Positions 3,513 to 35,832 of a stretch of DNA of 64,000 nucleotides are shown here, one piece after another (the first letter of the stretch is position 1; each line of letters begins with the position of its first letter). The DNA is taken from the IMG/VR virus record IMGVR_UViG_3300037851_000500, positions 32,001-96,000 of that record; one strand, given 5' to 3'. A program made the translations under genes and the position numbers. The notes below the pieces were generated by a model that ran no database searches, had not been told where the DNA came from, and saw nothing but the letters and a program-made list of their open reading frames with translations. The stretch comes from a virus.

Positions 3513-3830
3513 TTAGGTTATATTCCTAACAGGGACATAGAGTAAATAAATGTCATAGCTAGGATCATCTACAGTTTGTAATTTCATGGTGATAACATAA
3601 TTTTTTCCATTAGTACCACCACGAACATAGGGCATTATAAATGTGCCAGAAAAAGTACACTTAGCTTGGTCTAATAAAGTATAGGAAAAATCTGTATTGG
3701 TTACTAATTCAACAGCCGTAAAATCAACATTATAAATTGTCTCTCCATCAAGCCAAGGAGCAGCATCAATTTTAGCAAACCATTTTTCATATGGATCTTT
3801 TGGCCTGGAAAGATAAAATTTTTGGCTCAT
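3513..3830 (-). CDS. Small beta-sandwich virion protein, fibre-adaptor-like
   Basis: KDPYE..D..PWLDGETI...VRGGTNGKNYVIT pattern recalled from phage fibre-tail adaptor proteins. Confidence 0.55.
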   Translation of the reverse strand: MSQKFYLSRPKDPYEKWFAKIDAAPWLDGETIYNVDFTAVELVTNTDFSYTLLDQAKCTFSGTFIMPYVRGGTNGKNYVITMKLQTVDDPSYDIYLLYVPVRNIT

Positions 3831-4180
3831 AAGTTTATCTCCAATTCAGGAGGAGTAACTATTACTCTCCCACTGGAAAAAACCCAAACACGATATTTAT
3901 TAGTAACACAACAATTTATATATTCTCTAAGTTTAATACCGTCACTACCCTGTTTTAAAAACCCCCGGCCAAATCTGCGAATAAATCTATCCCCTAAAGT
4001 GAGATCAATTAAAATATCATGTTTAGGTAAAATATTTATTGTGGGTATAAAAGAAACGCGCACAATTTTTTCTAATGGTAGTGTTTTCCAGGTTTGCTCT
4101 TTTTTATTTCCATCATACTGTGCGCGAATTTCACCTTCACAAGTTTCCATTTCCCAAAAATAAATTAAATTTGGTTCCAT
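3827..4180 (-). CDS. Hypothetical protein in the fibre module
   Basis: ORF overlapping its downstream neighbour by 4 bp; co-oriented with the late operon. Confidence 0.6.
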   Translation of the reverse strand: MEPNLIYFWEMETCEGEIRAQYDGNKKEQTWKTLPLEKIVRVSFIPTINILPKHDILIDLTLGDRFIRRFGRGFLKQGSDGIKLREYINCCVTNKYRVWVFSSGRVIVTPPELEINL

Positions 4181-4208
4181 AAAATATCCTATCTAAATTT
4201 TTATTATG

Positions 4209-4240
4209 TGCTATACCCCCTTTATAAAGGGGGTATAGCA
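4209..4240. other. Perfect 32-bp palindrome (mRNA-stabilising hairpin, terminator or binding site)
   Basis: TGCTATACCCCCTTTATAAAGGGGGTATAGCA is its own reverse complement. It lies 30 nt downstream of the 4271-4762 gene and has no clear U-tract. Confidence 0.85.
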
Positions 4241-4270
4241 ATTCATATTAAAATCAACATAAGCAAAAGT

Positions 4271-4762
4271 CTAGGTTTCATCATACGCAAATGTAGCCGT
4301 TTCAGGAGTTAATTGCCCAGGAGAAGCAGTATTCTGAACAATCATTTGCATACGCAGAAAATCACCCTTGTACCCTGTTCCGGTATGGGGTCCAGTATTA
4401 ACTGCATCCAGGTCAATAACAGCCCCGGAAGTTTTACTAAAAAAGTCAGTTCCAGAAAGATCAGTATCCACATTTGCTGCCCAAGTACCAGTTACAGTGT
4501 ATTCAACACCAATACCAGTACCAAACCCGCTGCTTCCATCAGAATAGGCCCTCAGATTTTGAATATCAACAGATGGGGCCACACTAATATAAAACCGAAG
4601 CATTTTTGTATAACTATAATCTTCACCAGCACCAGGAATTTGTAAACGATTGTTGGTGTCAACAGCCGTTTCATCTACCGATTTAAATCTGACAGTCCCA
4701 GAAGTTTTGTCCACACCTGTACTTGTACCTGTCATTTCGTGAATTTGTACTGTAGCTGCCAT
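4271..4762 (-). CDS. Small beta-rich virion protein, candidate high-copy filament subunit
   Basis: G/T/S-rich beta-sandwich-like sequence with a strong AAGGAG RBS and a downstream hairpin; directly follows the repeat protein. Confidence 0.6.
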   Translation of the reverse strand: MAATVQIHEMTGTSTGVDKTSGTVRFKSVDETAVDTNNRLQIPGAGEDYSYTKMLRFYISVAPSVDIQNLRAYSDGSSGFGTGIGVEYTVTGTWAANVDTDLSGTDFFSKTSGAVIDLDAVNTGPHTGTGYKGDFLRMQMIVQNTASPGQLTPETATFAYDET

Positions 4763-4806
4763 AATTTTTTCTCCTTATAAAATAAGTAATTTTTCTGGAT
4801 TTAATT

Positions 4807-7800
4807 TCATGTAGTTGTAAAATTAAACTTTTTATTTGTCACAACAAATTGGGGTTTCTCATATGTTTTAAAATCAAATTTCTTATTGGTGACAATAAAT
4901 GAATATTTTGGATGTGCTGAAATTAAAGTGGAATAAATAATCACATCCATTAAAGTAGTTTTTGCTACATCACCAGAAAGAATTAATGCGTCCACCCCAA
5001 TCTGTCTGTAGATAGTTTCATAAAAAATACTATCAAGAGTAATTTCATTTAAAGTATAATTATACAACCACCCATCAAATCCAATAAGTTTTTGTTGAGA
5101 AATCTTCGTAAGGAGGGCATCCAGCACAACCCACGGAACAGGAGAACCAATAAGAATAGCGTCAAGTTGTTGGTTGATTACAAAAAGACTTTGTAATTGC
5201 GCTTCCAACAATGTTGTATTCATTATACCATGCTTTACCACCATAGCGTCAAGGGAAAAATTACCAATTATTGTTTTTAATAAAACAGAATCAAAAGTTA
5301 CCTGTCTTAAATTAATAATAGATAAAACTGCATCCAGGGATAAAGAAAAAGAATTTATAGTATATAAAATAGAATCTAAAGATATTTCTTTAAACATTAT
5401 TTTATCCAATAAAGCACCCAAACTAATGTTTAAAACACCTTCAGGTAAATATAAAATAGCATCTAATGATGTATATTTAGATAATAACTGCATTAAAAAA
5501 GCATCAACCGATATAGTTTTAGATTGTATTAATTTTAATAATGCATCTAAAGAAATACCTAAAATATTACCAATAGAATTTAAAAGAGAATCCAAATTTA
5601 ATGATTGTAAAATTAATTTATTAATATTAGCATCTAATTGTGTAATAACTACATTATTTATTCTTGAAATAAAAGAATCAATATCAACAGAACTATAATT
5701 TAAAAACTGAAGAAGACCATCCATTCCTACAGATTTTAAAAGGATATTAAAAATAACAGCATCTATTCCAACATAAGAAAATTCAGAAATACTTAAAATA
5801 GAATCTAAAGAAGCCTGTAATAAATTTAACTTTTGGGTATAAGCATCAATAGAAATATTTTCAAACCCCAAAGAAACCAAAAGAGCATCAACAGATAAAT
5901 TTATAGGAATGTCAATAATAGAAAGGAAAGCATCAATAGATGCTAATCTTGTTAATCCTAAAGCATTTAATAAAGAATCAAAAGAAAAAAGAATATCATT
6001 ACCGCTACCCAAAATAGCATCTAAATAACTTAAATTTGTAGCTCCTATTTTATTTAATAAAGAATCAATAGAAATTTGTTCCATACCTATCTTTTTTAAA
6101 TAAGCATCTAAACTTGGTTCAATAGCACCTATTTTGTACAAAAAAGCATTTAAAGACAGCGTTTTAAACATATTAGAATTTTGAATAAATCCATCTATTG
6201 ATACAACCTTAACAAATTCTTTAAAAACAATAGAATCAAATGATACTTCTTTAGAAAGCAACTTATAAAGAAAAGCATCTATATTTGCGCTTCTTAATTG
6301 ATCTATTTTATTCAACAAAGAATCAATAGTAACCTGTAAATCTATAGATTCGTAAACAATAGAATCCAAATTTGAAATAATATTTATATCCTGCTTATTC
6401 AATAAAGCATCAACTAATGGTGATACTATAAATAATTTTTTAATAAAAGCATCAATAGATGATGATTTAGTTAATCCAGTTTTATTTAATAATGAGTCAA
6501 TGCTTATATCTTCAGTTAAATTTAATTTATTTAATAAACTATCAATGTTTATATCTTTTGTTTCTAATAACTGAATAAAAGCATCAATAGATGATGATTT
6601 AGTTAATCCAGTTTTATTTAATAATGAGTCAATGCTTATATTTTTAGATTCTAATAACTGAATAAAAGCATCAATAGATGATGATTTAGTTAATCCAGTT
6701 TTATTTAATAAAGAATCAATAGATATTAATTTTGTAAATCCAATCTTATTCAATAAAGAATCAAAGCTCATGGAAATAAAGTTTTGTAAATAAACCAAGG
6801 CATCAATGGGAATTTCTTTTGTTGATCCTATTTTATTCAATAAACTATCAATGCTTATATTTTTAGATTCTAATAATTGAATAAAAGCGTCAATAGAAGA
6901 TGATTGTGTAAGTCCTACTTTATTTAATAATGAATCAATTGTTGAAGAAACAGTTGATACTAATAATAACCAAGCATCAAATTCACTTGTTTTTATAATA
7001 CCTGATTTATTTAACAAGGAGTCAATATTTACTGCTCTTTCTGTTAAATAAATTAATATAGCATCTAAACTTGAATCTATTGTAAATCCAATTTTATTTA
7101 ATAAAGAATCTATTTCTACAGAAGAAATATTTAATTTTCGTAATAAAGAATTCAGGGAAACATTTTTCAATAAACCAACATTTGTTAAAAATGAATCCAA
7201 TGATGCCGTTTTTGTTAATCCCATTTTATTTAATAGTGAATCAATAGTAACTGATCTTTCTATTCCCAATTTATTTAATAAAGAATCTAAATTTTGAACT
7301 TTAGTTATATTATCTTTGTTCAATAAAGAATCTAAATTGATAGATTTAAAAACTAAAGATAAAAGAAAAGAATCTAATTGTGTATTTTTAAACTGTTCTT
7401 TTAACAAAAGTGAATCCAATGAAGATTGAACAGATTCTATTGCATAAATAAAAGAATCTAATTGTGCTGATTTAGTTGTTTCCTTTAATAATAAAGCGTC
7501 TGATTGTACTTGTTTTAAAACCGCTAAAACTTTATAGGCATCTAATGATGTTATTTTAGTAATATCTACTTTATTTAATAATGAATCCAGTTGACTCTGT
7601 AATAAATTTATTTTTTGAAGTAAAGAATCAATATCAACAGATGAAATTAACCCTAACTTATTAACTAATGAATCAATATTTACATTTTTTAAAGTAGCTA
7701 ATTTTTGTACTAAAGAATCAATAGACAAAGAATTATAAATTCCTATTTTATTTAATAAAGAATCAATCGGAACATTTAAATATTTAGAAATTTGCAAAAA

Positions 7801-8535
7801 ACTATCAATAGATATACTTGCAGAAAGGGTTTTCTGAACATATGCATCATAATTAAAACCTTGGGTTAATGCTTTTTGAACAAGAGAATCTAAACTGACT
7901 GTTTTAGTCAGCCCGACTTTATTAATAAGTGCATCAACCGATAATGTTTTTGTTAACCCGGTTTTATTTAATAAAGAATCTATTGATGCTGTTTTAGTAA
8001 GATCTGCTTTGTTTAACAGAGAATCAATAGATGATGTTTTAGTTAGCCCAGTTTTATTAAGAAAAGCATCCAGTGATGCTGTTTCATCAAGACCTATTTT
8101 ATTTAATAAAGAATCAATTAATGCTGTTTTTGTTAGTCCAGATTTATTTAATAAAGAATCAATAGATGCTGTTCTATTAAGACCAACAATATTGAGATAA
8201 GCATCTAATGAAACATTTTCGTCATATGTCGTAATAGAATTCCGTAAAACAACATCCTGAATGAATAGTGCAATTTGTGAATCAAGAGATAAAGTCTTTG
8301 AATCTATTTTTTGTAGATAAGAATCTAAATCTGAAGTTTTAGTTTGATTTAATTTATTTAAAAGAGAATCTAAATCTAAAGTTTTTGAATCTATTTTTTG
8401 TAAATAAGCATCTAAATCCGAATCTATTGTAACAGAAAAATTTTCAACATCATTTGCATCTTCAAGAAGATAATAATCTCCATTCTCTAATAAGAGACTT
8501 CCACTTAAATCTTCTTTATAGATATAATTAGCCAT
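4807..8535 (-). CDS. 1242-aa tandem-repeat virion protein, about 80 repeats of 14-15 aa, consensus S-[IL]-D-[SA]-[LF]-L-x-K
   Basis: The repeat runs from about residue 35 to 1205. N-terminal LLLENGDYYLLE motif; C-terminal F[IV]VTNKKFxF present twice. Confidence 0.85.
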   Translation of the reverse strand: MANYIYKEDLSGSLLLENGDYYLLEDANDVENFSVTIDSDLDAYLQKIDSKTLDLDSLLNKLNQTKTSDLDSYLQKIDSKTLSLDSQIALFIQDVVLRNSITTYDENVSLDAYLNIVGLNRTASIDSLLNKSGLTKTALIDSLLNKIGLDETASLDAFLNKTGLTKTSSIDSLLNKADLTKTASIDSLLNKTGLTKTLSVDALINKVGLTKTVSLDSLVQKALTQGFNYDAYVQKTLSASISIDSFLQISKYLNVPIDSLLNKIGIYNSLSIDSLVQKLATLKNVNIDSLVNKLGLISSVDIDSLLQKINLLQSQLDSLLNKVDITKITSLDAYKVLAVLKQVQSDALLLKETTKSAQLDSFIYAIESVQSSLDSLLLKEQFKNTQLDSFLLSLVFKSINLDSLLNKDNITKVQNLDSLLNKLGIERSVTIDSLLNKMGLTKTASLDSFLTNVGLLKNVSLNSLLRKLNISSVEIDSLLNKIGFTIDSSLDAILIYLTERAVNIDSLLNKSGIIKTSEFDAWLLLVSTVSSTIDSLLNKVGLTQSSSIDAFIQLLESKNISIDSLLNKIGSTKEIPIDALVYLQNFISMSFDSLLNKIGFTKLISIDSLLNKTGLTKSSSIDAFIQLLESKNISIDSLLNKTGLTKSSSIDAFIQLLETKDINIDSLLNKLNLTEDISIDSLLNKTGLTKSSSIDAFIKKLFIVSPLVDALLNKQDINIISNLDSIVYESIDLQVTIDSLLNKIDQLRSANIDAFLYKLLSKEVSFDSIVFKEFVKVVSIDGFIQNSNMFKTLSLNAFLYKIGAIEPSLDAYLKKIGMEQISIDSLLNKIGATNLSYLDAILGSGNDILFSFDSLLNALGLTRLASIDAFLSIIDIPINLSVDALLVSLGFENISIDAYTQKLNLLQASLDSILSISEFSYVGIDAVIFNILLKSVGMDGLLQFLNYSSVDIDSFISRINNVVITQLDANINKLILQSLNLDSLLNSIGNILGISLDALLKLIQSKTISVDAFLMQLLSKYTSLDAILYLPEGVLNISLGALLDKIMFKEISLDSILYTINSFSLSLDAVLSIINLRQVTFDSVLLKTIIGNFSLDAMVVKHGIMNTTLLEAQLQSLFVINQQLDAILIGSPVPWVVLDALLTKISQQKLIGFDGWLYNYTLNEITLDSIFYETIYRQIGVDALILSGDVAKTTLMDVIIYSTLISAHPKYSFIVTNKKFDFKTYEKPQFVVTNKKFNFTTT
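6442..6711. repeat. Recent DNA-level duplications inside the repeat gene
   Basis: AATAAAAGCATCAATAGATGATGATTTAGTTAATCCAGTTTTATTTAATAA recurs at 6442, 6574 and 6661. Offsets are 132 and 87 bp, i.e. whole numbers of 14/15-aa units. Confidence 0.85.
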
Positions 8536-8538
8536 TAG

Positions 8539-9312
8539 TTATCCCAAAAATTCAATCATATAAATTATTCCAATAGTACCATTTGCGCCGTTTCGGTTTG
8601 TCGTAGATGATGCATGACCACCGCCGCCGCCAGCGCCATAACCTGTTCCAACTGTTCCAGCAGTATTCAACGCTGGTTGCAATCCATTTTTACCAAGCAA
8701 CGAACAGCCTCCCGCCCCTCCCCATCCGGTAGTTCCACTATAAATTACCCCCGCTTCTCCGGGAGATCCTTTTATATTTAGATCGCCAAGAGTGCCTATT
8801 CCGCCAGATCCACCAACAACCCTATCACCAACCGCTACATAAGCAGTACCATCCGTACCTGCACCACCACCAGTTGCTTTCAAGATTTCAGACCCAATGG
8901 CACCTATATATGAATCCCCACCAGCGGTAGCATTTGCTCCTGTGCTGCCAGAACCAGCGCCACCAATAGTAAATGCTTTGCTTGATCCAATATTAGCAGC
9001 AGTAAATAATTTAATTGCCGCACCACCACCGCCCCCTCCACTGCCGGCTGAATCGGTATTAATTCCGCCACCACCACCACCCCCACCGGCAACAAGTATT
9101 GCAAGACATTTTTTCATACCTGTTGTTGGAGTATAAGTACCACTTGCAGTTAGAACTTGAACAACTACATTTGAAACAAAAAGTGTAAGTAAATTAGCAA
9201 TAGTTATTTTTTGCGACACCGCACTTCCACCAGGATTATCTATAATAGGCAAAATATCCGTAACCAACGGAGCTTCATTTAATGGTAATCTGGTAATTCT
9301 GCTTCCAGGCAT
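8539..9312 (-). CDS. Glycine-rich fibre-tip/adhesin protein, paralogue A
   Basis: N-terminal SRITRLP..TDILPIIDNPGG domain plus a Gly-rich (GGGGGG) domain typical of phage fibre proteins. Confidence 0.75.
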   Translation of the reverse strand: MPGSRITRLPLNEAPLVTDILPIIDNPGGSAVSQKITIANLLTLFVSNVVVQVLTASGTYTPTTGMKKCLAILVAGGGGGGGGINTDSAGSGGGGGGAAIKLFTAANIGSSKAFTIGGAGSGSTGANATAGGDSYIGAIGSEILKATGGGAGTDGTAYVAVGDRVVGGSGGIGTLGDLNIKGSPGEAGVIYSGTTGWGGAGGCSLLGKNGLQPALNTAGTVGTGYGAGGGGGHASSTTNRNGANGTIGIIYMIEFLG

Positions 9313-9320
9313 TTTTTCAC

Positions 9321-10058
9321 CTACACATTTAAAAATTCAATAAAATAAGCTACTCCATTTGCACCAGCACCACCGGCTCTATCTGTTCCTTCAGAACAGG
9401 CCCCCCCGCCACCGCCACCGCCATATGGACCACCATCAGAACCAGCAGCATTTGGACCACCCCCGGCCCCGCCGCCCCCAAATACTGAGTTTCCACCATC
9501 GCCCCCAAGACTAGCAGAGGTTGAATAAATTATTCCGCGCCGTCCACCCTGACCAGGAACATTAATATCTCCACCTGAAGCAGCCCCGCCAGCCCCGCCA
9601 GCACCCAAAGTACCAAGAGTTGTGCTATCCGCGCTTGACGATCCACCAGAACCGGAGCCAGCAGACATTGAATTAACATTTAATGTCGTTGCATTCCCAG
9701 GAGTACCGACAACATAGGCTTTACTTGACCCAATTTCCGCTGCGGTACAAAGACGAATACAAGTTCCTCCACCACCACCTCCACCACCAGCGCAATCCAC
9801 ACCTGTTACCGATCCACCAGCACCGCCAGGACCAACTAAAATAACAAGTACTTTTTTCATCCCGGTTGTAGGTGTATAATTTCCAGATCCAGCCGTAAGT
9901 GTTTGGATGGTAACATTAGTAACAGCCATTGCCAAAAGAGATGAAATTTCCATTTTTTGTAAAACGGCTGTTCCCCCTGGATCATCTACAATAGGCAATA
10001 AATCTGTAGCCAATGGGGTAGTATTTGCATCAAGCCCAGTAATTTTTGAATCTGCCAT
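9321..10058 (-). CDS. Glycine-rich fibre-tip/adhesin protein, paralogue B
   Basis: Shares DLLPIVDDPGG, YTPTTGMKK, IGSSKA and a terminal IEFL with 8539-9312. Confidence 0.75.
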   Translation of the reverse strand: MADSKITGLDANTTPLATDLLPIVDDPGGTAVLQKMEISSLLAMAVTNVTIQTLTAGSGNYTPTTGMKKVLVILVGPGGAGGSVTGVDCAGGGGGGGGTCIRLCTAAEIGSSKAYVVGTPGNATTLNVNSMSAGSGSGGSSSADSTTLGTLGAGGAGGAASGGDINVPGQGGRRGIIYSTSASLGGDGGNSVFGGGGAGGGPNAAGSDGGPYGGGGGGGACSEGTDRAGGAGANGVAYFIEFLNV

Positions 10059-13286: not shown

Positions 13287-14147
13287 TTAATAAGATAAAA
13301 CAGAAGAAATCACATTCTTAGGAGGAATAAGGTTATAACAAAAAGGCCCAAATTCCGTTAAATTTTCACACTCATTTAATTGAGTTTTCCAACACCCAGA
13401 CCTATCACAACAAGGTAATTTTCCTATTGTATGCAAAAACGACTGATCTGGATATTTTTCCCATATATAATTTTCTCTGCCTCCACCTATAACTATACAT
13501 GGTTTATGAAAAGCAGCAGCTATATGCATTGGAAAAGATACATGACAAATTACACCAATAGAATGATAAATTAAAGAAAAATAATCTCTAATATTATCTG
13601 TTTTACCAATTAAATTTTTAACTGATTTTAAGGGAGGATGATTATGATGAGAATGACCAGTTTGAACTATATTAAAAGCATTAAAAATATTTAATTCATT
13701 TACTATTTGCTGCCAATAAATTGCAGGGTATTGCTTTAAAGGCATATCATTTTTAAATCCAGCATTTATTACACAATAAGGTTTATTAATACCGAGTCTA
13801 TTTAAAATTTCTAAACTTTTTTCTTTTTCAGTTAAAAATATTTCTGGGTATATTGATGTTCTTTCTATTTTTACATTTAAATATTTTTCCAATAAAATAT
13901 AATATGATTCAGAATAATGATAATTTTTATTATGATTCTCATATTTCCATTCAAAAGGATTTAATTCTATAATAAGATCACATTTATAATTACTAATATT
14001 TGGATTATTATAAAATATTTCAGGATAACAACTTTGAACAGATATTTGAAACTCAAAAGGATAACTTAAATGCAGATCTCTTAAAGCAGAGGTAAATACT
14101 AAACAATCTCCTGGGGCATAGAAGTTCTTAAATGTAATACATTTCAT
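13287..14147 (-). CDS. GT9 family heptosyltransferase-like glycosyltransferase
   Basis: PGDCL N-terminal motif, NLIGKT, SFPMHIAAAFHKPCIVIGG and a Cys cluster CCxxxGCW..C..C. Its ATG directly follows the fibre gene TAA. Confidence 0.85.
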   Translation of the reverse strand: MKCITFKNFYAPGDCLVFTSALRDLHLSYPFEFQISVQSCYPEIFYNNPNISNYKCDLIIELNPFEWKYENHNKNYHYSESYYILLEKYLNVKIERTSIYPEIFLTEKEKSLEILNRLGINKPYCVINAGFKNDMPLKQYPAIYWQQIVNELNIFNAFNIVQTGHSHHNHPPLKSVKNLIGKTDNIRDYFSLIYHSIGVICHVSFPMHIAAAFHKPCIVIGGGRENYIWEKYPDQSFLHTIGKLPCCDRSGCWKTQLNECENLTEFGPFCYNLIPPKNVISSVLSY

Positions 14148-18356: not shown

Positions 18357-19556
18357 TTAAATGGGCATGGGTTCTATATCAATATATGCAACGGGGGATT
18401 CAACACCAGCCTCTATATAAAGATATATCTCGGCAATTGAAACACGCGCATCCCCATTATTAAGTGTAACATTAATTCTAAAATATCTATAGGCTGTATC
18501 TGCAACATCACAAACAAAGTCTCTTTTTTCTCCACTTCCCCATGAAATTTGATCGGTAACTGAATCAAGCTCATACCAAATGGAATCATCATTACTTCCA
18601 TACAACGTCCAATTTCTTGGCTGTCTATTTGGTTCAGGAATAGAATTACTTACTAAAGAATAACTACTTATTAGTTTGGCATTATCAACTCCAAGATCTA
18701 TTTTTACCCAACCAGTAGATATAGATGCAACCCAATAATGCCCAGAACCAAAAAGTGTGGAACTATCAAAACATTTCCATCCCCTATAAGAAGAAGTGTA
18801 ATAAGAACTTTCTGTAACCACACATGGGTAAGTATTATACACCACCATATTATGTGGGGCAACATCAATACTGGAATCACTATTATCCACCTGAGTAATT
18901 TCAAATCTTATATTTGGTTGAAAAGTTGTATTATCTGCAATATTAAAAGCAGAAGTATAAATATATTCAGCATCATCATCTGGATTTAAAGTATCTACTA
19001 TTGGAATAAATACAGTTCTTCTTAATGAATTGGTTAAAGCATTATACACACGCACAATAAACATTCCTAAATCAGAACAATCCCCGTCACCATAATCATG
19101 TTCTATACCATAACCTGCTTTTCCGTAACCTACCCCTGGTACTCTTGTCCTTGCCCTCCATGTCACTTTATAATCCACCAATGCTAAATTATATGTTCCA
19201 GATTCTACAAACCCTATACCCTCATTTAAACTTATAGAATAAACCATTCTTTGAGAAGTAGTATCTTGTAAATTTAATATTTCATCAAAATACCCCCATC
19301 CCCATCTTTCTTCTAAATCATTTAATCCCAAAATTTCTTCAAGGAATTCAGTTAATCCAAATTTATCTAATAAAGCTAAAGTCTCAGTTAATAAATAATT
19401 ATATATACTGCCGCCAATTGAGTGAAACCCAATATACTCTATAAAATGTGCTCTATAAATAATTTCATAATCAAATGAATCTGAAAATGCAACAGTTTCA
19501 GAAAAATAATAAACATCTGGAAATGGATTACTTCCTATAAATTTAAATAATTTCAT
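18357..19556 (-). CDS. Tail protein with six N-terminal E-x-phi-x-phi-x-D repeats and a discoidin (F5/8 type C) domain
   Basis: WVKIDLG..PRNWTLYGSND..W..LD..YRYFRINVT..IAEI is the F5/8C signature. Confidence 0.75.
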   Translation of the reverse strand: MKLFKFIGSNPFPDVYYFSETVAFSDSFDYEIIYRAHFIEYIGFHSIGGSIYNYLLTETLALLDKFGLTEFLEEILGLNDLEERWGWGYFDEILNLQDTTSQRMVYSISLNEGIGFVESGTYNLALVDYKVTWRARTRVPGVGYGKAGYGIEHDYGDGDCSDLGMFIVRVYNALTNSLRRTVFIPIVDTLNPDDDAEYIYTSAFNIADNTTFQPNIRFEITQVDNSDSSIDVAPHNMVVYNTYPCVVTESSYYTSSYRGWKCFDSSTLFGSGHYWVASISTGWVKIDLGVDNAKLISSYSLVSNSIPEPNRQPRNWTLYGSNDDSIWYELDSVTDQISWGSGEKRDFVCDVADTAYRYFRINVTLNNGDARVSIAEIYLYIEAGVESPVAYIDIEPMPI

Positions 19557-22500
19557 TCTTCCACCAATCGTAAAGATTCCGGGAAATATGGTCTATAACC
19601 ATATAATTGTATATTTATAGTAAAAGAAACAGCACTATTAAAGTTAAACATCGGAGAAGAACTATATATTAAAGGAACAACCCTAAAGGTCTGACTACCC
19701 AACCAAGTAGAAGCAATATCAACAAATATTGTTGGTTCATAAAAAGTTATTAAACTACCAGAAGCATGAGCAGCAGCATAAGTATCCCTTTGTTGGCGAA
19801 CAATATTCATTAATCTATTATTATCTGCATCAATACCATTATAACTTATTAATTCCTCCCCAATAAAAATTAATCCTGATGTTGGAAGTACACCAGACAA
19901 GTCTGAATATTCTATATAAGAATTATCAAAAATTGAATCGGTTAAAGAATTAACAAGTACCATTGTTATTGGCATAGGAGCAATATTACCAACAACATCC
20001 CAAGTAGTTCCATTAAATCTATAAACCCTTCCACCAATAATATTACTTTGAACAACATCAGAATTAAATCCAAAATAAAGATAAGGAAATTCTCTACTTT
20101 CAAAAATGTTTAAATTGGAAAATTGTGAAACTGGAGTCATATCATTAGTAATTCCTGGAAATCCATTAAAACTATTAGATATTAATAAATTTGATCCCTG
20201 ATCATGGTAAACATAAGGATTATATTCTTCACACTCTAATCTAACTTCAAAAGAATCTCCTACTTCTTCTAAAGACATAATTCTAAAATATTTTCCATTC
20301 CACCCGGTAATTTCATGGGACACTGTAATTATTTCACCAGGGCATAAATAAAGACCAGAAACATCAGCCTCAAAAGCGCAAGACCATTCTACAAATTCAT
20401 TATAATCCATTAATTGCTGTGCTAATCTATTAGCTTGGGAACTTCTCTTTACTCCCCGCATTTTATATGTTTGTATTTTATCATATTCATCAGACAATCT
20501 CAAATAATCTGATTGTGATTCTGCTATTTCATTAACATACTCCTGCAACCTATCCTTATATTCTACTCTAACTAAATTTGGACGTTTAAGCCTTGATTTT
20601 TGTGAAAATACAAAAGTTCCTTCTTTAATATTATCCTTTGGGTTAATATAAAAAGAGCTTCCAGAAATATTTAATCCATGCCAATATGCATCTTCACATA
20701 AAAGATTAAAAGTAGAATCTCCAATTATTTTTAATTGAGTAGTTGACATATGTTCTGTTACTATCACTTCATAAGTTATAAGATTAAAAGTAAATAATCC
20801 ACTTTCACCTTTAAAATAATTTATTGGGTAAGCACTTAAATCCAATGTTAAAATCATAAAATGTGTATCTTTTCCTGTCCAATTGTATGCCACATAAGCA
20901 GTAGACTGTGGATAAGTTGGAATATTCCCTTGAACTGTAAATAAATGCCCAGAACTTTCTTTACCAAAGGAAAATACAGGTGTTTCAGTTGAAGTAGGAA
21001 CTACATATCTTACTTTTTTACCACATTGAAAAATCCAACCCATACATGAATTCATTATATCCCTGGCAATATCCATCACGCTTTCTCTAGCATCCATGCA
21101 CAGAGAATATTGGTATCTTGGTTCCAAAAAATTAATATAATTATTACCAATAACTGCTGTTACAGTTACAGGCTCATTACAAGTGGACGTAGCAGGAGTA
21201 ACACTTGTAACATCTATTAAAGGAATACTGCCCTGTTGAAAATAATCACCAAAAACATCATTTTTAAAAAGAATATCTAGTGCCGATATAGGATTTTCAT
21301 CTCTATGATAAGAATAAGCACTACCTTGATAATACCCACTTAGCAATGTAGTAAAACTACTTGTTAAATTCCAATCAATTGTGGCATAACCACAGGTCCA
21401 TGCTGCTCCTGATTGAGCTACACATCTTAAAACTCCATTAGGATTAAGAGTTGTTGGTGCATTAAGAACCCAAAATTCTCCATAACCACCAAAAGAATAA
21501 TAACCACCATCATAAGCATGATTTAAATATATAAATAACTTATTTTCTATACCCACTTTTCCTATAGACATATCCTCATTAAAAGTTTCACCAGTAAACC
21601 ACCAACCATTATATAGTGGGCCTGTATATACAGTTTCCCTAACTAAAATCTTAATTAACCCACTAGAAAATCTATTATCCCTTAATCTACCAAATCTAAT
21701 TTGGTAATTTGGATAATCATAGCGAAGGGCATACCATTGTTTTATAAGTTCACCAGTATTAGGATTAGTTACCCATAACCATGCTGTAGCATGATAATTT
21801 ATTCCCCAAGCATGACCACACCCATTAGGATTTGACTCCCAAAGACCACGCTCATCCCATGTATCATTACCACCGGAGGAAAAATGATCAAAACTCAAAG
21901 TATCAGAATCTATTGCATATTGACAAATTTTTCCACAAGTTGGGATTTGCATACAAGCATAATATACCCAAATTTCTTCTTCAGTAGCACAAGTAGCTAT
22001 TAAATCTGAAAAGGAACAACAATACTGCAACCCCCACAAAGAATAAAAATAAGGAGCTAAAGTTTTATTTAAAATACCTTCAAATTCCCCTGTTTCTTTA
22101 TCAAATTGCAAAACAGCACATATATTAGGACCACCAATACTAGATATATCACTATATCTCCAAGGATCTCCGTCATTAACTTCATCAGTATATGCATCAT
22201 AGGGTAATTCTGGATTTACCACATCTTGATCATATGCAACTGACGGACTACCCTCAAAAACAAGATAATAATTTTGCCCAGGAACAGGGGCCACAGGTAA
22301 TGGATCTGTTAATGTAATATTCCCTCCAACAAAACTTTCACTCTGATCAATAGTAAAAGCCACATTATAATTATACCCAATTATTACAACTGCATCAAAT
22401 TTTCCATCACGATTAGTTGAAATTAAAGATGGTTTATAATTAGTAATTAAATGTGTAGTTGTACTTCCATAATCAACAGTTATAAATTCCTGTTCATATC

Positions 22501-24094
22501 TTTGAGCATAATCAAGATGCATATATGCCCCTGTAACTGGATTTCTACCCATTTCCTGATCAATATCAACATAAGTTTGTGTTTGAGCTACTATTCTTCT
22601 TGGAACTCCCTTACCACCAAAACTTAAATTACTTATAGATTCCCAAATATATTTATTCACCCACCAACCATCAGGATACCCGGAAAGATCTAAATAAATT
22701 CTTGTTCCTGGTGCTACAGTATCTTGGGTGCATCTTAAATTATCTTGTAAAGGAAAAGCATCTTGTACTAACTGACCAAATACTAATATTTTACCACTTC
22801 TTGTTACTTCCATTGATTTTGCTACAAAGGCACAATTCCCAGAATCAAAATGATTTAACCCATAAATAGGTTCATCCAATTTTAAAGATACTGGGTTTAA
22901 AGTATCTTCTCTATCAATATAAAATAAACTATATTTTAAAGAATATTGAGCGTGGTGCTTACTTTCTGGGTCAGTATCCAACCAATGGTTTTCTCCTGAT
23001 ACTATTTTTCCATGAAAAAAATATATTCTGTTATCCCACTCATCTGTACGAGATAAACTCATATCATTATTCCAACCAGCAGTTATATCATAAATATTCA
23101 TTGGATAGGTAACATTATTAACTGTAGTTGGATAATTAGCAATTACAGTTTCACCATAAAAAGGATGAATTCTTGAAAATCTAAATTGATTTACAAGATT
23201 AATAAAACCTGATTGAAAAGTATACCAATAATCATGTAAACCATCTCTGGAACTATGTCTTTGTACGGAAGATATAAAACTTGGTTGCGGTTTAAATGAT
23301 TCACCAGCATAAATAGAAAAACAAGATGTTACTTCTCCAGTTATGTCTGGAAATTGGGTTAGTCTTATAGCATCTCTAAAATTAAATTCATCAGCATTAT
23401 ATGTATCATCAATTCCAAGGTCCTCGACTATGGAAAAATCCCCAAACCACCCATCATAACTAAACCAGTTGTACCATTTATAAGGAACATCTGGATCTGG
23501 TTCTCTTAAAAGATAAGAAGTTGAATCCGTATAACCTGCATCTTTCCTAATCCATATTGGGTGAACACCAGCACCAATATTATAGTCTTCTAACATTCCC
23601 TCCATTTTAATAGCGTCACTTAACCACAACCCCCAAAACCAAATGTCTTTAGTATTAAAAAACAATCTATCAATATTATGTCTAAGACCAGCACCATAAT
23701 AAGGACCAATTTTTTGAGCAAAAGCAATAGCAAATTTAGAATTTGTAGGTCTGTAATATGAACCAAAATAAGAAGATCCCTGACTATATACTCCCTGTGC
23801 TCTTAATTCAGCAGAATCATACAAACTCAATTGCCCAAACCAAACAATTGAACCGGGGCAAATATCAGAACCAATTAAATATGGAACAGCATCCAATTTA
23901 GTAGATAAGTTAATATCCCTTGTTTCATTATTATATGGTTTATGATTTTTACCACCAATAATACCAAATATCCAAGCCCCCAACATTGAGCCAATCCAAC
24001 CACCCACCATAGAACCAATTGGCCCCCAGTAAGAACCAATTATGGAACCGAGTGTTCCACCAGCAGAACTACCTGTAGAAACATCCACTGACAT
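19553..24094 (-). CDS. Tail tip/central fibre protein (gpJ-like), long paralogue
   Basis: C-terminal part shares DNIKEGxF, PNxxRxExxxR, GVKRxxQAxRxAQ and VSHxxTGW with 24101-26398; large aromatic-rich insertion. Confidence 0.75.
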   Translation of the reverse strand: MSVDVSTGSSAGGTLGSIIGSYWGPIGSMVGGWIGSMLGAWIFGIIGGKNHKPYNNETRDINLSTKLDAVPYLIGSDICPGSIVWFGQLSLYDSAELRAQGVYSQGSSYFGSYYRPTNSKFAIAFAQKIGPYYGAGLRHNIDRLFFNTKDIWFWGLWLSDAIKMEGMLEDYNIGAGVHPIWIRKDAGYTDSTSYLLREPDPDVPYKWYNWFSYDGWFGDFSIVEDLGIDDTYNADEFNFRDAIRLTQFPDITGEVTSCFSIYAGESFKPQPSFISSVQRHSSRDGLHDYWYTFQSGFINLVNQFRFSRIHPFYGETVIANYPTTVNNVTYPMNIYDITAGWNNDMSLSRTDEWDNRIYFFHGKIVSGENHWLDTDPESKHHAQYSLKYSLFYIDREDTLNPVSLKLDEPIYGLNHFDSGNCAFVAKSMEVTRSGKILVFGQLVQDAFPLQDNLRCTQDTVAPGTRIYLDLSGYPDGWWVNKYIWESISNLSFGGKGVPRRIVAQTQTYVDIDQEMGRNPVTGAYMHLDYAQRYEQEFITVDYGSTTTHLITNYKPSLISTNRDGKFDAVVIIGYNYNVAFTIDQSESFVGGNITLTDPLPVAPVPGQNYYLVFEGSPSVAYDQDVVNPELPYDAYTDEVNDGDPWRYSDISSIGGPNICAVLQFDKETGEFEGILNKTLAPYFYSLWGLQYCCSFSDLIATCATEEEIWVYYACMQIPTCGKICQYAIDSDTLSFDHFSSGGNDTWDERGLWESNPNGCGHAWGINYHATAWLWVTNPNTGELIKQWYALRYDYPNYQIRFGRLRDNRFSSGLIKILVRETVYTGPLYNGWWFTGETFNEDMSIGKVGIENKLFIYLNHAYDGGYYSFGGYGEFWVLNAPTTLNPNGVLRCVAQSGAAWTCGYATIDWNLTSSFTTLLSGYYQGSAYSYHRDENPISALDILFKNDVFGDYFQQGSIPLIDVTSVTPATSTCNEPVTVTAVIGNNYINFLEPRYQYSLCMDARESVMDIARDIMNSCMGWIFQCGKKVRYVVPTSTETPVFSFGKESSGHLFTVQGNIPTYPQSTAYVAYNWTGKDTHFMILTLDLSAYPINYFKGESGLFTFNLITYEVIVTEHMSTTQLKIIGDSTFNLLCEDAYWHGLNISGSSFYINPKDNIKEGTFVFSQKSRLKRPNLVRVEYKDRLQEYVNEIAESQSDYLRLSDEYDKIQTYKMRGVKRSSQANRLAQQLMDYNEFVEWSCAFEADVSGLYLCPGEIITVSHEITGWNGKYFRIMSLEEVGDSFEVRLECEEYNPYVYHDQGSNLLISNSFNGFPGITNDMTPVSQFSNLNIFESREFPYLYFGFNSDVVQSNIIGGRVYRFNGTTWDVVGNIAPMPITMVLVNSLTDSIFDNSYIEYSDLSGVLPTSGLIFIGEELISYNGIDADNNRLMNIVRQQRDTYAAAHASGSLITFYEPTIFVDIASTWLGSQTFRVVPLIYSSSPMFNFNSAVSFTINIQLYGYRPYFPESLRLVEE

Positions 24095-24100
24095 GAGTAT

Positions 24101-26398
24101 TTATACCAAAATTAATATATCATTTGGTGTGGTATTATCATTCGGAGCAACAATACCATCTGCACTATAGGATACTATTCTGATTGTCCACTGATTACCA
24201 ACATCAGTATCCTCAAAAGTAATAAAGGGAGTATCAATTTGCTTTAAACTACAATATTTATCGGCTGTATGTGCTACTCTAATTCCGACAGTTCTAACAC
24301 ATCCCTCAAACTCAAAATTAACAGCATCAATACTTGTATAAGTAATGTATTCTTCATCAATCCAAAAACCACCAGATGATGGAAATGCCCCATACAAAGT
24401 AGAATTATCAAACGGAATTACGGTTTGAACATCTGTTATATCTGAAGCCAGTTTAACACTTGGGGTAGTAATAGAAACAAGTGTGATATATTGAAATTCT
24501 GCATCAACCCCATTTTGAACATAAACACGAACACCATACCAATAAGGTTCATCTTCTGGTCTTTTAAAGCACAACCAAATTTTATTTTCAGTATAATCTT
24601 GAATAGCGTTAAATCTTTCTGTTTGCGCCGGAATATCCCATCTTGATGGGGTGGCATTATACGTTGTTCTAAACGGAGAAACTATGCTATCACTATAAAC
24701 ATTAGAATTATATTCCAATAATCCTAATTGAATTTCATCTTCCTCTTTTTCTTCAATATTAACTACTCTAAAGGATTTTTTATCCCACCCTGTTTGTGCA
24801 TGTGAAACACCAACAATATCACCTACTGCATGTTGATACCCCTCTACCCCAGTAATAAATACACAAGTTTGTCTCGCATAAGTAGTGGCATCAGAAAAAA
24901 ATTGGGCCATTCTCATTGCCTGAGTTTTTCTTTTAACTCCACCAAATCTAATAGTCTTTATTTTTCTAAAATTAGTAGTAATACTGGAAGTGCTATTTGC
25001 TTTAGAATAATATTCTGGAGTTTCATGTTCAATAACATCATTGCCATATTCATTAACCCAGGCATTATTTTCCTCATCCCACATTACCCTATTTATAAAT
25101 TCTATCCTGTATATATTAGGAATACTATACTCAGGAATAGATTTAAAAGTAAATGATCCTTCTTTAATATTATCCTTTAATAAAGATATAGTTATTCCAG
25201 AAGAAAAAGCAGAATCAAGATCATCACATAAATCAATATAAGTACTTGTTTGATTATATATAAAAAATTCTATAACTACACCATCTTCATCCGTATATGT
25301 TCCAGAAGCACCTTTCCAAAATTGATCTGGATAATCAGAAAAATCAGAAAATATTCTATTTACTGTACACCCACCGGATGTAACAAAATCAACTTGTAAT
25401 CTATCTGAATAATAATATTCTGGAACTTCACCAGCCTTTTCTATTAATGGTTCCAAAAGCCCCTGCTTATATCTAAGCAAACTTCTACAAGAAGAAAATA
25501 AATCTGTTAATATATCAAAACCTTTGTTTCTATCAGATATATATCGAGAATATCTAAAACGTGGTTCTTGTTGAGTTACACCATTAGCATCTATATAACT
25601 AACAAGCTCATCACAATAATCTGCTTCTATTTTCCAGGGAGAACCAACAGTATCAGGATCACCATTAAATTCTTCAGGATTTATGCCCATTCCATATCTT
25701 TTATTGGTCAAAAAATCATAAGCACATCTTATTGGATTAGCATCCAATTCATCTTCTTCTACACAAAAACCTCTTAATTCAACAGCTATATTTGGAACAG
25801 TCGCAGTAGAAGATCCCTCAACACGAAGCTCCATTGTTGACCAACAGGTGTATTTTAATTTTGGAAATGGGTAAACATTCCCTGAGTACAATGATTCAAA
25901 ATATGAATCCCCAACAGGAACAGCTTCACCAGAATGAAATACTCTTAAATTAATATGATACCCCTCTATATCATCTTCAGCTTGTTCAAATAATTTATCA
26001 TTTGCCCAACGTCTATAAGGATAAGCCATTGTTACTGGGCCTTCACAATGAGCTACAGCCCAAAAAGCATCAAGTTCAACTAAAAATGTTTCTGGCCCCT
26101 CCTTACCACCACCCTCCCTGTCAACATCAATATCGAAATCTCCTTTAGCAATTACACCACCACCACATTTATCTTGCCCATATAAAACTGGTAATGGCGC
26201 ATTTCTTACATAAGAATTAAAAGTTAAATCTCCTTGTGGGTTTGGCTTTTTAGGACTATCTGGGGGGTCAATTAACCTACCTAAGAATCCACCAATTGCC
26301 ATCCCAATCATTGCACCAGGGTATCCACCAATGTACCCACCTATGGCACCACCTATAACAGTACCTATAGTTCCACCAAGAGATCCACCTATATTCAT
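24101..26398 (-). CDS. Tail tip hub protein (gpI/gpJ-like, Phage-tail_3 type)
   Basis: Gly-rich hydrophobic N-terminus, PVLYG, DANP..YDFLTNKRYGMG; follows NlpC/P60. Confidence 0.8.
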   Translation of the reverse strand: MNIGGSLGGTIGTVIGGAIGGYIGGYPGAMIGMAIGGFLGRLIDPPDSPKKPNPQGDLTFNSYVRNAPLPVLYGQDKCGGGVIAKGDFDIDVDREGGGKEGPETFLVELDAFWAVAHCEGPVTMAYPYRRWANDKLFEQAEDDIEGYHINLRVFHSGEAVPVGDSYFESLYSGNVYPFPKLKYTCWSTMELRVEGSSTATVPNIAVELRGFCVEEDELDANPIRCAYDFLTNKRYGMGINPEEFNGDPDTVGSPWKIEADYCDELVSYIDANGVTQQEPRFRYSRYISDRNKGFDILTDLFSSCRSLLRYKQGLLEPLIEKAGEVPEYYYSDRLQVDFVTSGGCTVNRIFSDFSDYPDQFWKGASGTYTDEDGVVIEFFIYNQTSTYIDLCDDLDSAFSSGITISLLKDNIKEGSFTFKSIPEYSIPNIYRIEFINRVMWDEENNAWVNEYGNDVIEHETPEYYSKANSTSSITTNFRKIKTIRFGGVKRKTQAMRMAQFFSDATTYARQTCVFITGVEGYQHAVGDIVGVSHAQTGWDKKSFRVVNIEEKEEDEIQLGLLEYNSNVYSDSIVSPFRTTYNATPSRWDIPAQTERFNAIQDYTENKIWLCFKRPEDEPYWYGVRVYVQNGVDAEFQYITLVSITTPSVKLASDITDVQTVIPFDNSTLYGAFPSSGGFWIDEEYITYTSIDAVNFEFEGCVRTVGIRVAHTADKYCSLKQIDTPFITFEDTDVGNQWTIRIVSYSADGIVAPNDNTTPNDILILV

Positions 26399-28680: not shown

Positions 28681-31600
28681 TTAATAATTTCTCATAGCAT
28701 CTCTAATTCTACGATTACTACGAATCATTCTAACAATATTTCCTTCTAATACAGCAGTATTCTTCATCAAAAAGTCAACACCAGATTGAGTATCAATAGC
28801 ACTTAAATTAATAGGCATATGAACTGTAAACTTATTTCCGCTATCACTTGTTTTAATCATCTTAGATAATTTATCTACTGGGGACACTATTTCATTTTGA
28901 CCATAAGGAGTTTTTTCACCAAAAGTATATGCTTGTCCAGATTTTAATCCTCTACCAATAATTGGTTCTGAAATAGTTCCACCCTCTGCCATAGCAATAT
29001 AACGCTCAGAACCAGAAGCAGCAGCCATACCAGAACCACCGGAGGCCATACCAGAACCACCGGAGGCCATACCAGAACCACCGGAGGCCATTCCGCTTTC
29101 ACCGCCACTAAATAAACCACCAATCATATCAAAAATACTACCAAGCATACCTCCGCTTTTACCAGCAGCTTGAGCATATTGTCCAGACGCAAGTAATGTA
29201 GCAATTTCTCCCAATTTAGAAAGAAATGAAGAAGTACCAGCATTTACCGCTTCTTTAGTTGCATTTACTGCATCCGTAGTTTTCTGAGCCTGATCAACTG
29301 CCCCCTGAGTAGCTTCTTTTACTGCTTGTTGCACACCTTCTGGTTTACCAACTATAAAAACACCAATTGGTCTGGTGCCTTCTAAAACCTGCTTCATTAA
29401 AACTTGATTCTGTTGCTGCAATGCTTCCATAGCTTTATTCATAGATGTAGCGGCAGGAGTCCCACCTTTACCAAATGCTTTTTGTAAAAATGTGGGAGAT
29501 CCAGGCTCACCAGATCCAAGAAAATCCATTAAAGGTTCCGTTATAGTTTTCTTAATGGTTGCTCTAAGAACATCCCTTTGGACAGTATTCATTAAATCTG
29601 TAAGTGCTTCTTTAGCTGTTTTAGTTTGGTCAACAAAATCTGCCATAGCATCTGTCATGCTATCTGCCCATGATTTGGACATATCTATCATTTCAGCCCA
29701 AAGAGGATGCAACTCTCTCCAAACAAGTCTTTCAGTTTCCAGGCGCATTATTTCAAGCTGGTCTACATAATTCTTTTTCATTTGTTCAAAAAATGGTCTA
29801 GAATCATCTTTTATATTTTCTAATTGTGTTTCAATTTCTTTAATTTTAAGAATTATATCAACGGTGTCTTTATTAAATTGTGCCGTAGCAGAATTTAATC
29901 TAGCCTGTCTTTGAATTAATGGTGAATATGCCCCCTCCCAGTATTTCATTGTTCTTATAACCAAATCAGCTTGATCACTATAATTTTTTTGCATTAAATT
30001 TAGTGTAGTTAACTCCATGCGTGTTTTCCGCATAGCTGCTACCATTAAATTCCACTTTTCTGCTACTTTATTAGTATGATCATCCAATTCTTCAAATTGA
30101 GATAACATTTTATCAATATCATTATAAAGTTTTTGAGCGTCCAATTCAATTTCAGCAAATGGAGATTTAAACGCTGCCCCCATTATTTTTTCTTTTAAAT
30201 CTTTTTGTGCATCGGTATACTCTTTTTGTATTTTAATTACTCTATTATAAATACCCTCTGTATAAGCAATTTCAGCATCAGAATTATCATAAAAACCACC
30301 CCTCCTTTTACTATTTTCAATCTGTAATCTTTTGATAGTTTCTTCCGTTAGTAAAATCCATTTTTGCAGCTTTTGCCATTCATTAGTTGGTGCATCATAA
30401 GTGTTTATAAGAAAATCATTCCATTCTTTTTTCAATCGGGATATACGATTTTCTTCTCTTAAAGAGTAATCATTACTTTTTTTGTCCCGTTCCGCATTAT
30501 ATGCAAAAATTAAAGAATTAGTATGATCCAGAGCATCTTTAAATGTATTATATTGATGTTCATATCGTGCATATTGACTTTCATCGTATGCTGTTTCACC
30601 AGCTTTTACACTAGCAAAGTATTTTTCATACGCTGCCAACTGCTCTTGTAACTGTTTTTTCTTTAATTGCGCTTCTTCTGTTTGGAGTCTATGTTCTTCT
30701 GCAAATTTTGCATAACCTTCCAAAGAAGCTGTTTTTGCTTGTTGTAACTGTTTTTTAGTTGAAAGTGCATACTCCAACAAAGCAATGCTATCATGTGGCA
30801 ATTTAAACATCGGCCCAAGATCTACTTGTTTTCTACCAGCTTCAGAAAGTTTTTCAGTTATTCCGTTAATTATATCTTGAATAGATTTTAATCGTTCTTC
30901 AGCAGATTTACTACCATCCCTAAAATTTTGCATAGCTTTAGCTAATTTTTTATCCAACTTATCTGCTTCTTTATTAGTAGCAGAAATATCATCTGTAAAA
31001 CCATGCATAATATCTACTGCATTAGCTGCATTAGTATCATATTTATCAACCCAAGCAGACATAACATCTAAAGATGCGGCTACAAAAGCAGTTATATTTT
31101 CAATAGCTACAAAAACACGCATAATAGCATATGAAAGATTCAAAATACCTTTTAATGAGGTGCTCATATTCTCAAGTTGTAAATTACTACCACCAAATAA
31201 ATCAGAAAAACCACCAATTATATTACCAATATTAGATAATGTATTAAATAAAGATTCAGCAACAATACCAATAGTTGATATTGTGGCACCAAATCCAGCA
31301 GCAATTTCTTTACCAAAATTTGTTAATTCCCCCTTAACATTAATTAACTTATCAGTAAAATCCATTAATTTTTTAGAAAATATGTTTGTAAATTCCTCTG
31401 CACCCACCCGTTTAATAATTTTCCAAACTTCAGTTATTCTATTTTTAGCATGTAACCATGAACCTTCTAATTTTTTATTCATTTCATCAAATGGCATAAG
31501 AGCATCAGACAAAACCACCAGTAAGTCCTTACCTTCTTTTTTTGCGTCTTCTAATACTTTCTTTAAATTAACCCCCATAAATTTAAACATCATAGCCAAC

Positions 31601-35740: not shown

Positions 35741-35748
35741 AAAACCTC

Positions 35749-35832
35749 CGTTCATTAATTAGTTTGTATTAAGAGTAGGTAAGATTTCTCCTACCTACTC
35801 TATAATATAGCACAAACTAAAATGAACGTCAA
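35749..35832 (-). promoter_or_regulatory. sigma70 promoter embedded in a long hairpin upstream of the HNH gene
   Basis: TTGACG-17 nt-TATATT at 35832-35804. Nested stems CGTTCATT/AATGAACG, TTAGTTTGT/ACAAACTAA and AGAGTAGGTA/TACCTACTCT. Confidence 0.75.

Follow-up and report, generated by a model that had tools for sequence, protein, structure and literature searches.

In this study, we analysed a 64,000-nucleotide stretch of DNA from an uncultured tailed phage (bases 32001-96000 of the 112,111-bp IMG/VR virus record IMGVR_UViG_3300037851_000500, which CheckV rates as complete; hereafter the window, to which all coordinates refer unless a locus is named). We propose, with a probability of about 70% and on computational grounds, that a gene cassette on its minus strand (3513-8535) encodes a rope-templated, chain-like fibre of the virion. 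The cassette holds open reading frames (ORFs) for a 1242-aa repeat protein, here called the rope (P0001, 4807-8535), a 163-aa protein, here called the bead (P0002, 4271-4762), a 117-aa protein (P0005, 3827-4180) and a 105-aa adaptor homologue (P0006, 3513-3830), all on the same strand. In the proposed fibre, the rope would be largely unstructured when alone and would carry about 80 tandem docking units, each of which would lie as a beta-strand along one bead, between the conserved bead segment 19-27 and the C-terminal strand, with the Asp of the unit set against the near-invariant Arg25. With one bead for every 14-15 rope residues, the number of units would fix the number of beads and hence, like a ruler, the length of the fibre. 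P0006 would anchor the fibre to the virion, as gp77 does in the podophage GP4, P0005 would be an accessory part (chaperone, cap or connector), and the likely function would be a reversible first contact with, or scanning of, the host surface, as proposed for the solved rope fibres. The core of this idea, namely that one repeat docks one 163-aa subunit and that repeat number sets length, had been put forward in a preliminary description of this DNA, and it is now supported by a model of the complex and by the co-occurrence of the two genes.

The repetition within the rope is far beyond chance. Using the strict motif [LIVFM]-D-[SAG]-[LIVFMWYAQ], 72 copies were found in its 1242 residues, and 63 of the intervals between neighbouring copies measured 14 or 15 residues, whereas 1000 shuffles of the protein gave a mean of 4.3 motifs (maximum 12) and a mean of 0.01 such spacings. 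After eight double-length gaps were split, 80 units were counted (42 of 14 aa, 36 of 15 aa and one of 12 aa), in agreement with the earlier estimate of about 80 units of 14-15 aa with a hydrophobic-D-[SA]-hydrophobic core. The array takes up residues 41-1195 (4951-8415, minus strand), and its consensus is about T-K-x-x-S-[IL]-D-[SA]-[LF]-L-[NQ]-K-x-G-L. The core Asp is kept in 74 of the 80 units, the Ser or Ala after it in 75 and the Leu, Ile, Phe or Val before it in 74. Relative to the Asp, positions -1, +2 and +3 are hydrophobic, +5 and -5 are often Lys, and -2 is often Ser. In the middle of the array, 15-aa units of the IDSLLNK type alternate with 14-aa units of the IDAF type, which gives a 29-aa super-repeat. 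At the DNA level, the rope gene contains recent tandem duplications of 45, 87, 132 and 219 bp (1, 2, 3 and 5 units; up to 90% identical) within 6439-6939 and 7899-8205, and these suggest that the array is still expanding or contracting by tandem duplication. The motif was not found elsewhere in the 112-kb genome. Searches with the rope gave no Pfam family above the cut-off, no tape-measure match in Pfam or PHROG, only PHROG matches of unknown function and no relative by sequence in the PDB.

Both ends of the rope differ from the array. The C-terminal tail (4810-4914, minus strand) carries a duplicated short motif, F-[IV]-V-T-N-K-K-F-x-F, whose copies are possible anchor strands. All rope homologues end in a short aromatic or basic tail of this kind, duplicated in P0001. 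At the other end, residues 14-25 of the rope (8461-8496, minus strand) carry LLLENGDYYLLE, a short motif that is duplicated and precedes the array, and in its place many relatives have a variable globular N-terminal domain that looks lectin- or beta-helix-like by eye.

One line of support for docking comes from a predicted complex. Two copies of P0002 with the family alignment were modelled together with a 44-residue rope segment of three units (residues 606-649, with seven paralogous segments aligned), and the median ipSAE (interaction prediction score from aligned errors) was 0.77, compared with 0.48 for the best of three controls. The ipSAE mark is reached by 58 of 80 solved complexes and by 2 of 110 mismatched pairs, counts that are rough here given the use of our own alignments and of a two-copy design. 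The three runs of the complex share at least 98% of their contacts, and the predicted local distance difference test (pLDDT) of the rope segment is 76-78 with the beads and 31 when an unrelated protein takes their place. The contacts with the lowest error trace a strand, in which bead residues 24-26 pair in parallel orientation with rope residues 16-18 and bead residues 159-154 in antiparallel orientation with rope residues 11-16, so that the strand pairing looked for in the preliminary description is present in the model. Residues 4-37 of the 44-residue segment make the contacts with the beads, each copy on a unit of its own. Rope Asp17 is touched by Arg25 of one bead and Asp31 by Arg25 of the other, a distance of 14 residues or exactly one unit, and the docked units include the 14-aa as well as the 15-aa type. 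The predicted interface is also better conserved than the remainder of the bead (mean frequency of the top residue 0.57 versus 0.44 elsewhere, p = 0.001). Arg25 is conserved in 94 of 108 bead sequences, and its contact with the repeat Asp therefore brings the most conserved residue of the repeat together with one of those best conserved in the bead. The 29-aa super-repeat would fit paired beads, yet both modelled copies bind in the same register.

The second line of support is genetic linkage in other viruses. A scan of IMG/VR with the 163-aa bead gave 23 loci, among which 19 hold full-length homologues (47-80% identical) on contigs with guanine-plus-cytosine (GC) contents from 37% to 62%. A rope-type repeat ORF lies directly upstream of the bead gene in six loci and shortly downstream in five more, and searches of whole records brought three further loci with a repeat ORF. 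In one of these three, about six units stand at the end of a 406-aa protein. Such an ORF is found within a few kb (about 3 kb) at all 19 bead loci except three, namely L006, which is 51% complete, L003, which is 5 kb long, and L017, a 6.9-kb fragment whose genes are identical to those of L018, where the repeat ORF is present. Starting from the rope, a bead gene lies in the flank at 9 of 11 loci. One further rope locus, L037, starts inside a P0005 homologue, and its bead gene lies off the contig end for this reason. Therefore, the co-occurrence that had been suggested as a check on the idea holds from either gene in nearly all related contigs with enough flank. The number of units among the relatives runs from 5 to 61, and the 80 of P0001 are the most that we saw, which is a 16-fold spread. 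In locus L008 (8883-11987, plus strand), another of the three found through whole records, about ten rope-type units (SMDAIL) form part of a single 1034-aa protein, where they follow an N-terminal domain and precede a long J-like tail-tip region.

The bead gene itself has features that would fit a product made in many copies. The Shine-Dalgarno sequence AAGGAG (4771-4776, minus strand) ends 8 nt before the bead ATG at 4762, which agrees with the strong ribosome-binding site (RBS) noted earlier, and a perfect palindrome of 32 bp, also noted then, lies just after the gene at 4209-4240 (14-bp stem, 4-nt loop). No short-range inverted repeat in the first 48 kb of the window is stronger than this palindrome, the intergenic RNA fold reaches -31.4 kcal/mol with no clear U-run behind it, and the RNA hairpin may act as a terminator or a stabiliser of the transcript. 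The preliminary description had likened this arrangement to hairpins behind structural genes, and the comparison is only partly right. Comparable hairpins stand after the immunoglobulin (Ig)-domain gene of the tail region (35839-36351; -28.0 kcal/mol) and after an HNH endonuclease gene (35063-35755; -34.8 kcal/mol), but behind the major capsid gene there is only a weak hairpin (-8.1). The GC content of the bead gene is 42%, similar to that of the major capsid gene, against a window mean of 32%. Judged from the sequence, RBS, hairpin and capsid-like GC content together would fit the bead as a many-copy product.

The bead protein was expected to be beta-rich, and AlphaFold2 (AF2) predicts an all-beta sandwich for P0002 alone with a pLDDT of 97.7, using an alignment of 108 sequences (this model replaced a first one from 17 sequences with a pLDDT of 72.8). 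The protein begins directly with its first strand and thus has no N-terminal donor strand of its own. Its family is large, with 697 clusters at 50% identity (E <= 0.001), or 361 at E <= 1e-10, all of them metagenomic and called "hypothetical". None of its members occurs in 50,697 deposited phage genomes, and neither the bead nor the adaptor has a tblastn match among GenBank phages. The bead and P0005 match no Pfam or PHROG family, searches of PDB sequences with the bead, the adaptor and a deep bead profile gave nothing meaningful, the protein atlas returned only unnamed viral clusters for the bead, and the predicted viral structures of BFVD returned only weak, uncharacterised matches. In fold comparison, the nearest structures by Foldseek are FimG and FimA (E about 0.01-0.02, template modelling (TM) score 0.4-0.5, probability up to 0.99). 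About half of the top 50 fold rows are donor-strand fibre subunits, including chaperone-usher pilins (FimG, FimA, PapA), TasA, CanA and archaeal pili, and this likeness of the modelled bead may be taken as a weak hint.

Several members of the bead family have other architectures. P0041 (243 aa, from the representative library) has about five rope-type units (IDAIV, VDGLI, IDGLK, IDAVL, LDAVV) fused before a bead domain; it would be a gene-fusion link between the rope and bead families or a pilin-like, self-polymerising form, and a scan of viral contigs for P0041 found nothing. P0077 (558 aa) has a bead domain followed by a large C-terminal domain, and in P0145 (521 aa) a propeller-like insert splits the bead domain, so some beads may carry enzymatic or binding modules. 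P0094 (1123 aa, 12 partial matches) was set aside as an unrelated repeat protein.

A number of observations weigh against the rope-templated fibre. The bead is modelled as a complete fold when alone, with no missing strand evident. Therefore, binding would be by strand augmentation or insertion and is not proven to be a pilus-like strand completion. The fold matches are middling only (best VIA-align Z 6.0-6.6, besides the Foldseek E values given above). Furthermore, PF23140 (Gp80, the family of the GP4 bead) matches none of 108 bead family members, including P0002, at E <= 0.1, the hhalign probability between the bead profile and gp80 is 0.2-0.4%, and the GP4 fibre structure 8JOU, which is in the library, is absent together with the other known bead entries from the top 50 Foldseek and VIA-align rows for both bead models, though the fold of gp80, VP1 gp11 and A1002 gp40 could still lie below these rows; the bead is therefore not a demonstrable relative of known beads. 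In locus L036 (8384-11275, plus strand), on a contig of 33% GC, about 61 rope units were found, but the 8.4 kb upstream and the 0.56 kb downstream to the contig end hold no gene for a bead, P0005 or an adaptor, and the next ORF (159 aa) is unrelated. Among the searched loci, L036 is the only exception to rope-bead linkage that contig ends or fragments do not explain. As for the complex, its score is a model confidence obtained with paralogous repeats in place of rope homologues and with two copies of the same chain, unlike the calibration set, and the modelled sites are 2 of 80. Moreover, unrelated 50-residue peptides still score 0.32-0.48 with the bead pair, which suggests that the pair accepts peptides rather readily.

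These points lend themselves to other explanations, among which a self-folding fibre shaft deserves the closest look. In this case, the rope would form a trimeric beta structure like the triple beta-spiral, or a coiled coil, and the 163-aa protein would merely be syntenic. The period of 14-15 residues, the regular hydrophobic positions and the frequent Gly do recall fibre-shaft repeats, the triple beta-spiral of the adenovirus fibre having a 15-residue repeat, and the IDSLLNK core has a helix-like composition. The complete fold of the bead alone and the score of 0.48 reached by unrelated peptides also suit a shaft. Nevertheless, a shaft would leave it without explanation that rope and bead genes stay linked in very different phages despite a 16-fold range in unit number, that the specific complex scores above its controls and spaces the beads by exactly one unit, and that conservation in the bead is highest at the predicted interface. 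When an unrelated protein replaces the bead, the rope segment falls to a pLDDT of 31, and with Leu and Ile making up 29% of the rope, its chain would need cover. We therefore consider the shaft unlikely, although it deserves to be kept in mind.

We also weighed two explanations in which P0002 has a different task. The polymerising bead might be P0005 or another protein, with P0002 as an assembly chaperone or capping factor that binds transiently. P0005 is as tightly linked to the system as P0002, and a groove that accepts peptides, as seen with the control peptides, fits a chaperone too. However, it is P0002 whose RBS, hairpin and capsid-like GC content point to abundant synthesis, the atlas model of P0005 is poor (pLDDT 0.39), and in the solved systems the bead is a small beta-sandwich protein of 140-171 aa (PMC13730344), which makes this exchange of roles improbable. 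The chance is slighter still that the Ser/Thr-rich rope is chiefly a glycosylation scaffold for glycosyltransferases of the same operon and that the 163-aa protein is unrelated or a chaperone. Ser and Thr are common at unit positions -2, -4 and -6, and a glycosyltransferase family 9 (GT9) gene at 13287-14147 is transcribed in the same direction, but the conserved unit positions are the Asp and the hydrophobic residues rather than Ser/Thr, and the predicted specific interface would be left unexplained. Most related loci show rope, bead and P0005, whereas glycosyltransferases were not seen as constant partners, although no systematic search for them was made. A role as glycan scaffold is compatible with the rope-templated fibre, and the two are not mutually exclusive.

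The remaining genes of the cassette would complete the proposed fibre. A fibre-adaptor-like gene had been noted behind the bead gene, and this is the 105-aa P0006, two genes downstream and homologous to gp77, the fibre-tail adaptor of GP4. It matches the Pfam family of gp77, PF23148, with an E value of 4.6e-8 (33.9 bits, cut-off 27), and its family profile matches GP4 gp77 with an hhalign probability of 96.4% (E 1.1e-9). By analogy, P0006 is presumed to anchor the fibre on the virion. Its homologues are found in about two thirds of the loci with a full-length bead gene. A P0005 homologue adjoins the bead gene at every one of these loci, and P0005 has no relative in the atlas or in GP4; its profile shows no relation to the bead family, the adaptor family or GP4 gp76-gp83.

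From these parts, the size of the fibre can be estimated. We infer that all 80 units are occupied, that the fibre is about 0.1-0.4 µm long and that it is attached to a siphovirus-like virion, perhaps at the neck or the tail tip. The upper length assumes a fully extended chain (80 x 14.5 residues x 0.33 nm, or about 380 nm), and the lower one uses the pitch of phage A1002, about 2.7 nm per bead pair, which gives about 110 nm. Thus, the filament of about 400 nm suggested in the preliminary description holds as an upper bound, but the length would be nearer 110 nm with an A1002-like pitch. With 80 beads of about 18 kDa plus the rope, the estimated mass is about 1.5 MDa per fibre.

The cassette forms the downstream end of a single minus-strand virion operon, which takes up the left 48 kb of the window. 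The order in this operon is terminase, portal, protease-like protein and major capsid protein, then a tape measure protein of 1844 aa (28681-34215), two lambda-J-like tip proteins and accessory genes, with the rope gene downstream of those for the tip proteins. The gene immediately upstream of the rope encodes a Gly-rich protein, P0003 (257 aa, 8539-9312, minus strand; PF21722 Gly_rich_2 and tail-fibre PHROGs 863 and 6202), and the one next to it encodes a paralogue, P0004 (245 aa, 9321-10058, minus strand; PF21722 and PHROG 863). Both had been taken for Gly-rich adhesin paralogues preceding the repeat gene, and their matches to PF21722 and tail-fibre PHROGs make them ordinary proteins of the tail-fibre type. 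A megablast search with the first 20 kb of the window found no nucleotide relatives among GenBank phages, and a scan for sigma-70 promoters gave no more sites than shuffled sequences did.

Three other features of the operon were observed. The GT9 gene mentioned above is a heptosyltransferase-like glycosyltransferase gene inside the operon (minus strand; PF01075, E 1.6e-8). The HNH endonuclease gene (minus strand; PHROG 374, E 3e-46) is situated inside the tail gene block, with the tail assembly genes on one side and the Ig-domain gene on the other, and is probably a homing insertion. Finally, lambda-J-type Phage-tail_3 regions are present in two consecutive proteins of 1513 and 765 aa (19553-24094 and 24101-26398, minus strand), so that the central tip protein is, unusually, doubled.

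The proposed fibre has several implications. The rope-templated fibres described between 2023 and 2026 come from four or five phages with solved structures and hold 2 to 11 bead pairs, and with 697 unnamed bead clusters, a second unrelated bead and long-tailed phages among its users, the rope-bead principle looks far more widespread. Fibre length is apparently set by repeat number, and an external appendage would then offer a simple, testable example of a molecular ruler. The short docking motif and the Arg-Asp contact are amenable to work with recombinant fragments, and the reading would give names to three common "hypothetical" gene families of phages.

Among the known systems, Fiber-1 of the Ralstonia podophage GP4, reportedly described by Zheng et al. 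in 2023, is based on the same principle. In this fibre (PDB 8JOU), five dimers of the 140-aa gp80 sit on a separately encoded rope and are held by gp77 (PMC13730344, PMC12609058). The short bead-chain fibres mentioned in the preliminary description are real, as GP4, A1002 and Bas63 all have rope-plus-bead fibres built by beta-sheet augmentation (PMC13730344, PMC12609058). Like GP4, our cassette has a separate rope with tandem sites for a small beta-rich subunit, an adaptor of the gp77 type beside it, and clustered genes. In contrast, GP4 is a podophage with 10 gp80 chains (five dimers), while the cassette has about 80 sites and belongs to a siphovirus-like phage with a tape measure of 1844 aa; it also has the always-linked 117-aa protein, and its bead has no relationship to Gp80 that is detectable by sequence. 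In GP4 itself, gp79 (325 aa, L026:8948-9925, minus strand) repeats a hydrophobic-x-hydrophobic-D/E core in about ten units, each about 20 aa long, and this motif faintly resembles that of P0001. As these ten or so units equal the ten gp80 chains of 8JOU, gp79 is probably the GP4 rope; neither gp79 nor gp78 was found in the PDB by sequence.

The Pseudomonas podophage A1002 has a nozzle-rope protein, gp39, and 11 gp40/gp41 dimers, and its rope-like domain of about 268 residues spans about 300 Å with augmented beta-sheets (PMC13730344). Here too, tandem beads are bound by beta-sheet augmentation and the number of sites sets the number of beads, with about 12 rope residues per monomer (about 268 for 22) compared with 14-15 in our case. 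However, the rope of A1002 is a domain of the nozzle protein and carries two bead types, whereas that of the cassette is free-standing with about 80 near-uniform sites and a single bead gene. The relative in L008, with its ten or so units embedded in a J-like tail protein, resembles the tail-fused rope of A1002. In the collar-whisker complex of the myophages Bas63 and Sf14, a rope-like extension holds whisker dimers, two of them in Bas63 (PMC12609058), and the rope principle is therefore not limited to podophages. The Ig-like collar of Bas63 is related to the GP4 adaptor and its rope is the N-terminal arm of the collar; its whisker is structurally related to the GP4 fibre subunit, while the bead of the cassette is not detectably so.

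Other long assemblies share single features with the cassette. In donor-strand fibres such as chaperone-usher pili, a subunit receives the N-terminal strand of the one next to it. As predicted for the cassette, a beta-sandwich takes up a foreign strand beside its C-terminal strand, with weak fold matches (Z 5-6.6, and 5.2-6.6 for the pilins), but in the cassette all strands would be on one separate long polypeptide, the bead is predicted to fold fully alone, and there is no sequence relation. The neck fibre of the Anabaena myophage A-1(L) is about 100 nm long and has about 16 beads and an adhesin-like tip, and it consists of trimers set head to tail with no rope (PMC10966104). Unlike that of the cassette, its length is not set by a template. 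The tape measure protein is helical and lies inside the tail tube without a discrete docking motif per subunit. As proposed for the rope, it is one long polypeptide that sets the length of an assembly of many small subunits, and the two have no homology.

In conclusion, the system is not categorically new, because the rope-and-bead principle is already known. Its new aspects are the unrelated bead, the free-standing rope, the long-tailed virion, the always-linked extra protein and the broad, unannotated family, and the number of sites on its rope is seven times that of the longest solved example. We would give even odds to the wider proposal that uncultured phages share a large, unnamed family of fibres with a free-standing rope, a tunable number of 5-80 units and beads unrelated to Gp80, which would be either an independent invention or a very distant branch, convergent with donor-strand pili. 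Within such a family, the phage of P0001 would be the extreme case, with a fibre of about 80 beads and about 1.5 MDa that reaches up to several hundred nm and is longer than the tail of the phage itself.

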